44,342 bases of DNA. It comes from a virus. Taxonomy: Duplodnaviria; Heunggongvirae; Uroviricota; Caudoviricetes. This document shows, piece after piece, positions 2,678 through 3,971 of this stretch (position 1 is its first letter; each line of letters begins with the position of its first letter). The notes beneath the pieces were generated by a model. That model saw only the letters and a program-made list of their open reading frames with translations. It made no database searches and was not told the origin of the DNA. The stretch lies in IMG/VR virus record IMGVR_UViG_2547132254_000004, positions 1-44,342 of that record; one strand, written 5' to 3'. Made by a program: the position numbers and the translations under genes.

Positions 2678-3080
2678 AATTCCTCCAAGGGGTCTAATGG
2701 GTGAAACTTTATCACTCATTCAACCCAGAAGGAAATGTTTTATCTGGATATTTAAACAGTGACTACAACGTAATCTAGCACTGGTGATGCTTTGTTAGGC
2801 ATAGAGAATCATTCTATATACGACTAATGACAGAAAAACAGCAGACAAGTAGTTTGTTCATAAATTAACGCATACTACGTGCCTACGGTTTTCGAGACCG
2901 GTCCAATCATCAAACGAAACATAAAATTAGCTCACATTATGAGGAAAAGTATCTTTTTTGTACTCTGTAAATTCAAAGGCTTAGCCTCATTTCTCCGATG
3001 GTTTTCTCAACACTACTGGTTGTGAGCCCTTGCAATGTTCATTAATATACGTCTCACAAATAATTCATAGATATTGCAAA

Positions 3081-3971
3081 ATGGATATTACTGAGTTTCC
3101 TTCTGGAGTAATTGAACACCTTGGCTGGTATGTATACCGATTGATTGATCCGAGGGACGGAAGCACCTTCTATGTAGGGAAAGGCAAAGGTAACCGCGTA
3201 TTTGCCCATATGCGCGGTGAAGTGGCAGCGACTGATGATGACGAGTTACTGAGCAACAAGCTAAAGCAAATTAGAGAAATAAGGTTAGCAGGACTTGAGG
3301 TTATCCATGTCATCCATCGACATGGAATGACTGATGAAAAGACGGCGTACGAAGTTGAAGCAGCACTTATTGATGCCTACCCTGGGTTAACGAATATCAT
3401 GAATGGTGCTGGCAGCAATGAATTCGGCGCCGCGCATGTCAAAGAATTGATAGCAACATATCAACCCGAAACCATAACATTTCATCATAAAGCATTAATG
3501 ATTTCCGTTAACAGAAGTGCAAAGGATTCAGAGCTTTATGATGCGGTTCGATTTAGCTGGCGCATCAATGCCTCGCGCGCCAGTCAAGCAGAAGTCATTC
3601 TTGCCACTGTAAGGGGCATCGTTCGAGGGGTTTTTATTGCTGATAAATGGCTCAAATCAACACGTGAAAATTTCCCTACGATGAAATACTGGGACGAGGA
3701 TCCTGACTTTGAGGCAACACAAAGTTCTCGCTATGGTTTTGAAGGTCGAGAAGCCCCACCTGAAATAGCAAATCTTTATCTTGGGAAAAAAATACCAGAT
3801 GAATTAAGAAAAAAGGAGCTATGTCCCCGGTCCGTTACTCACCTAATTTTTGAGTATTCAATTGATAAGATTAAACCGCAGCACGTTATTGCATACAACG
3901 TGTCTGCGGTTTCAACTCCGCCGGCCCCCCCCAATCATGATTGGACAGCACTTGCAAAAAAAAGAAATTAG
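3081..3971 (+). CDS. GIY-YIG nuclease-domain protein, C-terminal ~200 aa unassigned
   Basis: N-terminal [29 protein letters not shown] fits the GIY...YVG...R..H signature. Start placed at ATG 3081 (MDITEF...); track ORF begins at TTG 3030. Divergent from the MTase across an AT-rich spacer. Confidence 0.55.

Follow-up and report, generated by a model that had tools for sequence, protein, structure and literature searches.

The window analysed here, 44,342 nucleotides of a virus of the class Caudoviricetes (IMG/VR record IMGVR_UViG_2547132254_000004), opens with an EcoRII-type restriction-modification (R-M) system followed by a gene for a GIY-YIG nuclease. With a probability of about 0.9, this gene (3081-3853, plus strand) is an orthologue of PD-T4-3, renamed CMoRE, and this estimate covers the identity together with the mechanism and the locus inferences attached to it. 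The family has been described before, down to crystal structures and biochemistry, and standard defence finders call the protein PD-T4-3. An earlier note on this DNA, made from the letters alone, had proposed a defence nuclease or a modification-dependent restriction enzyme linked to the 5-methylcytosine (5mC) sites, CCWGG, of the neighbouring methyltransferase (MTase); the proposal was right in kind, whereas the link to 5mC and CCWGG is not supported. Little new biology is thus to be expected from a recognised and structurally solved enzyme directed against T-even phages. The value of the analysis lies in the corrected gene coordinates, in a long C-terminal tail that is most likely a homopolymer assembly error, and in a checkable point, raised by model comparison, that the sensor of 5-hydroxymethylcytosine (5hmC), published as a "distinct fold", may be a member of the PUA-like superfamily of readers.

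Identity of the nuclease

The PADLOC model for PD-T4-3 (PDLC04031) matches residues 1-245 of the window protein on profile positions 1-244 of 256 (E 1.9e-133), and the same residues match phrog_5356 in the PHROG search (E 1.9e-136). A phmmer search of the PDB retrieves CMoRE of Escherichia coli O157:H7, 9U75 (E 8.6e-163), and 9U7U (E 3.8e-142). Identity to 9U75 is about 98% over residues 1-245, with five conservative substitutions in 245 residues, and a 257-residue E. coli protein stands one substitution apart over the same range. The N-terminal GIY-YIG signature (WYVYRL...) reported in the earlier note is present in the plus-strand open reading frame (ORF), with a Pfam LEM-3_GIY-YIG match (E 2.8e-14) that covers only residues 29-111; the NCBIfam search of the window protein gave no match.

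At the residue level, where the earlier note had raised a possible mutation of catalytic residues, the published key residues are all present within residues 1-245. The window protein has the three tyrosines of the GIYxY-YIG motif (Y17/Y19/Y31), the family-invariant R39, H43, E93 and N105, the acidic lid D52-D53-D54-E55, and R80 and Y127, with residues 120-245 of the sensing domain intact. Among 23-36 homologues, the most distant at about 52% identity, Y17, Y19, Y31, R39 and E93 never vary, and most of the residues listed are likewise conserved throughout; on this ground R39 and E93 are presumed to be the catalytic Arg and Glu. As judged from the alignment, the window protein also has the tetramer-interface residues V92 and L96, and it does not differ from 9U75 in the beta1-beta2 segment. 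The window gene further shares with PD-T4-3/CMoRE its single-gene organisation, its E. coli host and its prophage or mobile-element setting, in addition to the motif, the lid, the interface residues and Y127. Unlike the window copy as written, PD-T4-3/CMoRE has no 1-nt contraction, keeps its last 12 residues and lacks a 51-residue tail.

The discovery of PD-T4-3, in E. coli and by functional selection, is credited to Vassallo et al. 2022 (PMC9519451, as cited in PMC12923530); the later name is CMoRE, and structures are available (PDB 9U75, 9U8D, 9U7U, 9U7Z; Liu et al. 2026, PMC12923530). It is a single-gene type IV restriction endonuclease that binds and degrades DNA with 5hmC or glucosyl-5hmC and not DNA with cytosine or 5mC, T2, T4 and T6 plate about five orders of magnitude less well in its presence, through direct defence rather than abortive infection, and it restricts T4(hmC) whereas T4(C) escapes (PMC12923530). 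The enzyme needs only a divalent cation, is modification-dependent and nearly devoid of sequence specificity, and requires two modified cytosines, cutting at CN11/N9G to leave 2-nt 3' overhangs (PMC12923530). It is a tetramer whose function needs the interface formed by V92, L96 and the beta1-beta2 loop; 5hmC is bound by the C-terminal domain via the main chain of Y127, and an acidic loop shields the active site with its GIYxY-YIG motif (PMC12923530). When the four acidic residues are removed, CMoRE becomes toxic and active on ordinary DNA (PMC12923530). A 48%-identical homologue likewise requires modified DNA and defends at very low, uninduced expression (PMC12366544). Deletion of PD-T4-3 in a natural isolate leads to sensitivity to Tevenvirinae, an effect additive with that of an R-M island.

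By analogy, the window enzyme would act as a homotetramer recognising two 5-hydroxymethyl- or glucosyl-hydroxymethyl-cytosines via its C-terminal sensing domain, as shown for proteins 85-98% identical to it. Its N-terminal GIY-YIG domain would then cut between both modified cytosines at CN11/N9G, the acidic loop over the active site sparing ordinary and 5mC DNA, and incoming T-even phage DNA would be degraded directly and non-abortively. The adjacent EcoRII R-M system would be an independent neighbour covering unmodified CCWGG DNA, PD-T4-3 covering the hypermodified phages that resist R-M, so that both would form a complementary pair.

Several points weigh against this reading. The window allele departs at five positions from the crystallised O157:H7 enzyme, and the copy as written lacks its last 12 residues, including G246, P250 and Y253 and a confidently predicted terminal beta-strand, so that the enzyme may be inactive if the underlying deletion is real. 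As for the idea of a complementary pair with EcoRII, it draws on co-location (243 genomes) and on additivity observed in another strain, whose R-M system is not EcoRII.

Gene boundaries

The features of the locus are as follows.

1-1209, plus strand: EcoRII-type restriction endonuclease gene (Pfam EcoRII-N and EcoRII-C).
1244-2677, minus strand: EcoRII-type C5 cytosine methyltransferase gene (Pfam DNA_methylase and DNA_meth_N), 477 residues from ATG 2677.
2678-2869, no strand: part of the intergenic region that belongs to the EcoRII cassette and precedes the MTase gene; absent from PD-T4-3 loci without EcoRII.
2870-3080, plus strand: upstream region travelling with the nuclease gene (211 bp); homology with the locus of strain a15, where a SIR2 gene is the neighbour, starts at about 2870.
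3081-3853, plus strand: native PD-T4-3/CMoRE coding sequence, 257 residues with the missing A restored in 3809-3814; stop TGA 3851-3853.
3081-3395, plus strand: GIY-YIG nuclease domain part (Pfam LEM-3_GIY-YIG, residue check, family invariants).
3438-3853, plus strand: C-terminal modified-cytosine sensing domain, about residues 120-257, with Y127 and the family-invariant terminal motif G246..P250..Y253.
3809-3814, plus strand: A6 run, A7 in relatives (alignments with AR_0369 and a15); cause of the frameshift.
3816-3971, plus strand: out-of-frame 51-codon extension (residues 246-296), without homologue; predicted local distance difference test (pLDDT) below 50; the native stop lies at 3851-3853.
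3854-3914, plus strand: downstream end of the portable PD-T4-3 module; homology with invertase-type loci stops at 3914.

The nuclease ORF is divergent from the EcoRII-type MTase gene, as the earlier note had seen, but neither end of the extent it gave, 2678-3971, is that of the gene. Position 2678 is the first base past the MTase start codon, and the mechanical ORF runs on the plus strand from TTG 3030 to 3971. The start is placed at ATG 3081 because every homologue begins at the methionine of MDITEFP..., and the end at 3971 is owed to the A6 run that is A7 in near-identical genomes, the native stop being 3851-3853. On the other side of the intergenic region, the MTase gene has a further in-frame ATG upstream at 2719, and the MTase is annotated as 477 residues in AR_0369 and in loci L004-L009.

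The nuclease gene presumably has its own promoter within 2870-3080. The consensus scan returned no convincing plus-strand promoter (none with at least 9/12 matches in 2870-3080) and no convincing terminator for it; a candidate read by eye, TTGTGA (3020-3025) and TAATAT (3043-3048) separated by 17 nt, matches at 8/12 positions, below the scan threshold.

The C-terminal frameshift

About 200 C-terminal residues had been described as unassignable. About 140 of them are the crystallographically solved 5hmC-sensing domain, to which the 51-residue frameshift tail is added. Homologues measure about 245-260 residues, and their best coverage of the 296-residue window ORF is 83-84%. Both AR_0369, which is 99.9% identical, and a15 carry A7 where the window has A6, and this 1-nt contraction at 3809-3814 is the reason why the ORF runs to 3971. 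From residue 246 to 296, the window ORF is out of frame and without homologue, and the tail (245-296) is predicted to be disordered (pLDDT below 50). Conversely, reading in the -1 frame from 3815 restores the native C-terminal 12 residues. In the segment lost, no family member departs from G246 or Y253 and few from P250, and a beta-strand is predicted at 251-253 within a block of pLDDT about 89; as the window sequence stands, the G246..P250..Y253 motif is not read in frame. Exact look-ups of the 296-residue and 313-residue window proteins found none on record, which fits a private or artefactual allele.

The same kind of change recurs elsewhere in the window. Relative to AR_0369, the first 12.9 kb contain only three indels, at 3814, 4560 and 4780, each of which shortens an A7/T7 run by 1 nt, and comparison with the a15 prophage adds three further 1-nt deletions in A7/A8 runs at 24721, 28052 and 28724. 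Thus, each of the six clean indels relative to these two near-identical genomes is a 1-nt deletion in an A/T run of at least 7, and five of them break four genes. An acyltransferase-family gene (4405-5470, plus strand), which is intact with 355 residues in AR_0369, a15 and AH02, is split into three ORFs by two T7 to T6 contractions at about 4560 and about 4780, probably belonging to the same class of assembly error as the PD-T4-3 frameshift. The deletion at 28052 truncates a TIGR04255-family ORF (27403-28092), and that at 28724 splits a hypothetical ORF, of which the part at 28787-29128 matches only positions 96-209 of phrog_4575. An 80-bp query spanning the A-run matched 607 complete E. coli genomes, none of which has the A6 allele over the whole query length, and the first contraction in the acyltransferase gene was likewise in no other genome tested.

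Because all six clean indels are A/T-homopolymer deletions, an assembly artefact is favoured: the 51-residue tail would quite likely stem from homopolymer under-calling, and the gene in the organism itself is probably undamaged, encoding 257 residues, both conclusions being drawn from sequence comparison. As the same type of error breaks at least three other genes, the other frameshifted ORFs of the window are to be distrusted.

A real 1-nt deletion, leaving a C-terminally damaged pseudogene or an attenuated PD-T4-3 whose defence would be lost or weakened along with the neighbouring acyltransferase, is unlikely but is the alternative that deserves most weighing. A6 is what the sequence as given contains, the part lost holds invariant residues and a confidently predicted beta-strand that probably closes the sensor domain, and its replacement is predicted to be disordered. 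Moreover, no indel arises more often in nature than homopolymer slippage, and changes of this kind build up in mutator lineages. Against this, the six indels fall exclusively in A/T runs of at least 7 over 25 kb and break four unrelated genes of a prophage otherwise 98-99.9% identical, a pattern typical of homopolymer under-calling, and the contractions tested occur in no other genome.

A genuine A6 run could also leave the native enzyme partly made, since the heptamer A_AAA_AAG (3809-3815) is in the correct phase for -1 ribosomal slippage that would restore the C-terminus of the 257-residue protein. A AAA AAG is the slippery site of dnaX. It also speaks for partial synthesis that very low, uninduced expression is enough for defence by a homologue (PMC12366544). 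However, the idea is weakened because RNA folding downstream of the heptamer gave no stimulatory structure (z-score +1.5, the shuffled sequences being the more stable); no Shine-Dalgarno-like stimulator is evident in the sequence upstream either, and the uniqueness of the A6 allele against 607 genomes and the window-wide contractions point to an artefact. Partial synthesis by slippage is accordingly very improbable, and the same low standing is given to the proposal that a genuine A6 run serves as an expression attenuator or as a slippage-prone on/off switch for a type IV nuclease hazardous to self-DNA.

Relation to the EcoRII-type methyltransferase

A divergent, AT-rich region of about 400 bp shared by the nuclease and MTase genes had been put forward. 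The region exists (403 bp, 2678-3080, 36% GC) but is a recombination mosaic of two cassettes rather than a shared regulatory unit. Indeed, in most PD-T4-3 loci the match does not begin before query position 193-206, corresponding to about 2870 in the window, whereas plasmid EcoRII cassettes (about 80% identity) match up to 2759 and lack the nuclease. Downstream of the nuclease, the homology with invertase-type loci stops at 3914, and from these two breakpoints, 2870 and 3914, the portable unit is delimited as about 2870-3914.

The neighbours of PD-T4-3 vary: EcoRII R-M, SIR2, invertase, acyltransferase, housekeeping genes, a PIN-domain gene with a small ORF, and transposases are all found, with no obligatory partner. 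In strain a15, a gene for a 936-residue SIR2-family protein stands where the window has EcoRII. Distant homologues, from Acinetobacter and metagenomes, stand alone beside housekeeping genes, transposases, or the PIN-domain gene and small ORF, which are likely a toxin-antitoxin pair. The gene is carried by about 860-870 E. coli genomes, about 620 of them without the MTase junction. The co-occurrence with R-M genes suggested for examination in the earlier note is real, as the MTase/PD-T4-3 junction is present, as prophage cargo, in 243 of 5,426 complete E. coli genomes (about 4.5%), a number close to that of the records having this chromosomal EcoRII allele at 99% identity or more (263). In this fraction of complete genomes, a classical R-M system and a type IV enzyme are naturally paired and travel as prophage cargo, and from the co-location it is sensible to regard EcoRII and PD-T4-3 as complementary defence cargo.

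In the usual arrangement, the nuclease partner of a Dcm-type MTase is the Vsr endonuclease, whose gene normally overlaps or lies downstream of that of the MTase. The window nuclease gave no Pfam or NCBIfam match to the Vsr family, and its gene is divergent and separable from the MTase gene. A functional coupling of the nuclease to the MTase, either as 5mC/CCWGG-dependent restriction or as T:G mismatch repair at 5mC, is therefore given hardly any credence, despite the divergent arrangement with its 403-bp spacer, the recurrence of the pair in the 243 genomes and the presence of the nuclease beside nearly every chromosomal copy of this EcoRII allele. Besides the mosaic structure of the intergenic region and the lack of a Vsr-family match, the carriers without junction, the plasmid EcoRII cassettes without nuclease and the distant homologues without MTase neighbour argue against it, and CMoRE neither binds nor cleaves 5mC DNA (PMC12923530). 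The tie to the 5mC sites of the MTase is thus not supported, the gene being found without any C5-MTase in most E. coli carriers and in other genera. That 5mC is no substrate of CMoRE explains its coexistence with Dcm-type methylation. On the evidence of these locus comparisons, the nuclease is independent of the methyltransferase.

The sensing domain and type IV relatives

The 5hmC sensor was described as a distinct fold without structural homologue, binding 5hmC at its edge and not in a pocket (Liu et al., PMC12923530). Structure comparison of the sensor, for which a predicted model was used and not the crystal coordinates, gave alignments of about 86-100 residues each with modest scores. The matches were 5guq (ASCH, 5.6), YTHDC1 (YTH, 5.4), the EVE-HNH enzyme VcaM4I (5.4), THYN1 on 5mC DNA (EVE, 5.3) and the N-terminal domain of McrB (4.8), the last of these being PUA/YTH-like. 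Foldseek lists VcaM4I at E 0.06. A lenient Pfam scan of 36 homologues detected no EVE, ASCH, YTH or SRA signal in the C-terminal domain, so the PUA-like similarity is one of structure alone. The "novel-fold" 5hmC sensor may, on this modelled comparison, be a divergent PUA-like (EVE/ASCH/YTH) domain, which is considered likelier than slippage at the A6 run.

A PUA-type sensor fused to a nuclease is the standard type IV architecture (PMC7897488), and Bell et al. 2020 (PMC7641849) predicted fusions of EVE with GIY-YIG. A PUA-like sensor would therefore make CMoRE less exotic. Like CMoRE, the PUA-sensor type IV enzymes (EVE-HNH VcaM4I, EVE-GIY-YIG fusions, archaeal McrB N-terminal domains) combine a reader of modified bases with a nuclease; CMoRE differs in that its nuclease is N-terminal and of the GIY-YIG type rather than HNH or PD-(D/E)XK.

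GmrSD and McrBC, the classical type IV systems of E. coli directed against hmC/ghmC DNA and 5mC/hmC DNA, respectively, fulfil the same role as CMoRE, restricting T-even DNA hypermodified on cytosine, but are unrelated proteins with other domain architectures. Both depend on nucleoside triphosphates, and McrBC also cuts 5mC DNA. For CMoRE, in contrast, a divalent cation suffices and 5mC DNA is left uncut (PMC12923530).

Other GIY-YIG enzymes

The GIY-YIG enzymes Eco29kI, I-TevI, T4 EndoII and UvrC recognise a sequence or damage and not a base modification; CMoRE stands apart from them by its third tyrosine, its acidic lid and its sensing domain (PMC12923530). The homing-endonuclease alternative mentioned in the earlier note finds no counterpart in the domain content, since neither the window protein nor its 36 homologues contain a NUMOD/IENR-type DNA-binding domain. 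A free-standing GIY-YIG homing endonuclease promoting its own spread, instead of a defence gene, would agree with a weak PHROG match (phrog_314, E 0.0013), with the annotation of some jumbo-phage homologues as "putative homing nuclease" and with the sharp mobile boundaries of the module; it is nonetheless dismissed as most improbable in view of the missing NUMOD/IENR-type domain and intron or intein context, of defence phenotypes in three independent studies of the PD-T4-3/CMoRE family, and of a modification-dependent activity with almost no sequence specificity (PMC12923530).

Full-length PD-T4-3 homologues (39-46% identity, 97-99% coverage) occur in Serratia phages Moabite and 2050HW, in Pseudomonas phage OBP and in others. 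These are lytic jumbo phages of about 255-285 kb, whose homologues, sometimes annotated as homing nucleases, were found by protein search only; a DNA search of the phage collection found nothing. The jumbo-phage homologues may be used in inter-phage competition against hypermodified co-infecting phages.

Prophage setting and variable cargo sites

EcoRII, PD-T4-3 and the acyltransferase belong to a temperate phage whose tail is Mu/e14-like; they are flanked by its att/integrase end on one side and by its tail-fibre genes on the other. A record of strain AH02 deposited as "plasmid unnamed3" (NZ_CP081704.1) is a circle of 43,680 bp with phage genes only, in the order int-DinI-EcoRII-MTase-PD-T4-3-acyltransferase-tail fibre, and duplicates a chromosomal copy in AH02. 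It looks like an excised circular prophage, which suggests that the phage is inducible and has both defence systems in its genome.

Both sides of the nuclease gene are subject to exchange. The gene for the SIR2-family protein of 936 residues occupies the EcoRII slot of the window, beside an integrase, in a15 and in many other E. coli genomes, so that the position immediately upstream of PD-T4-3 behaves as an exchangeable slot for defence cargo. In other assemblies with the identical EcoRII/PD-T4-3 pair (loci L004-L008), a Gin/Pin-type invertase (Resolvase and HTH_7) and invertible tail-fibre segments replace the acyltransferase, indicating that the downstream neighbour is also variable.

A low-GC island (27403-29128, plus strand; GC 0.34-0.38) separates the lysis genes from the Q antiterminator and comprises genes for a TIGR04255-family protein (phrog_5464), for a phrog_5728 member and for a phrog_4575 member, the three of them without Pfam or PADLOC match. 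In AH02, its slot is taken by a Clp-fold serine protease, which designates the island as a second variable cargo site of the prophage; it is possibly a defence or moron locus of a kind not yet characterised.

Towards the opposite end of the window, two tyrosine integrase genes (40838-42010 and 43101-44342, plus strand) follow an insertion sequence-type DDE transposase (38442-39650). In AR_0369, the locus adjoins ssrA, and tandem islands near ssrA carry a DarT/NADAR (DarTG-like) module and a P4-like element, so that ssrA appears here as a compound integration hotspot.

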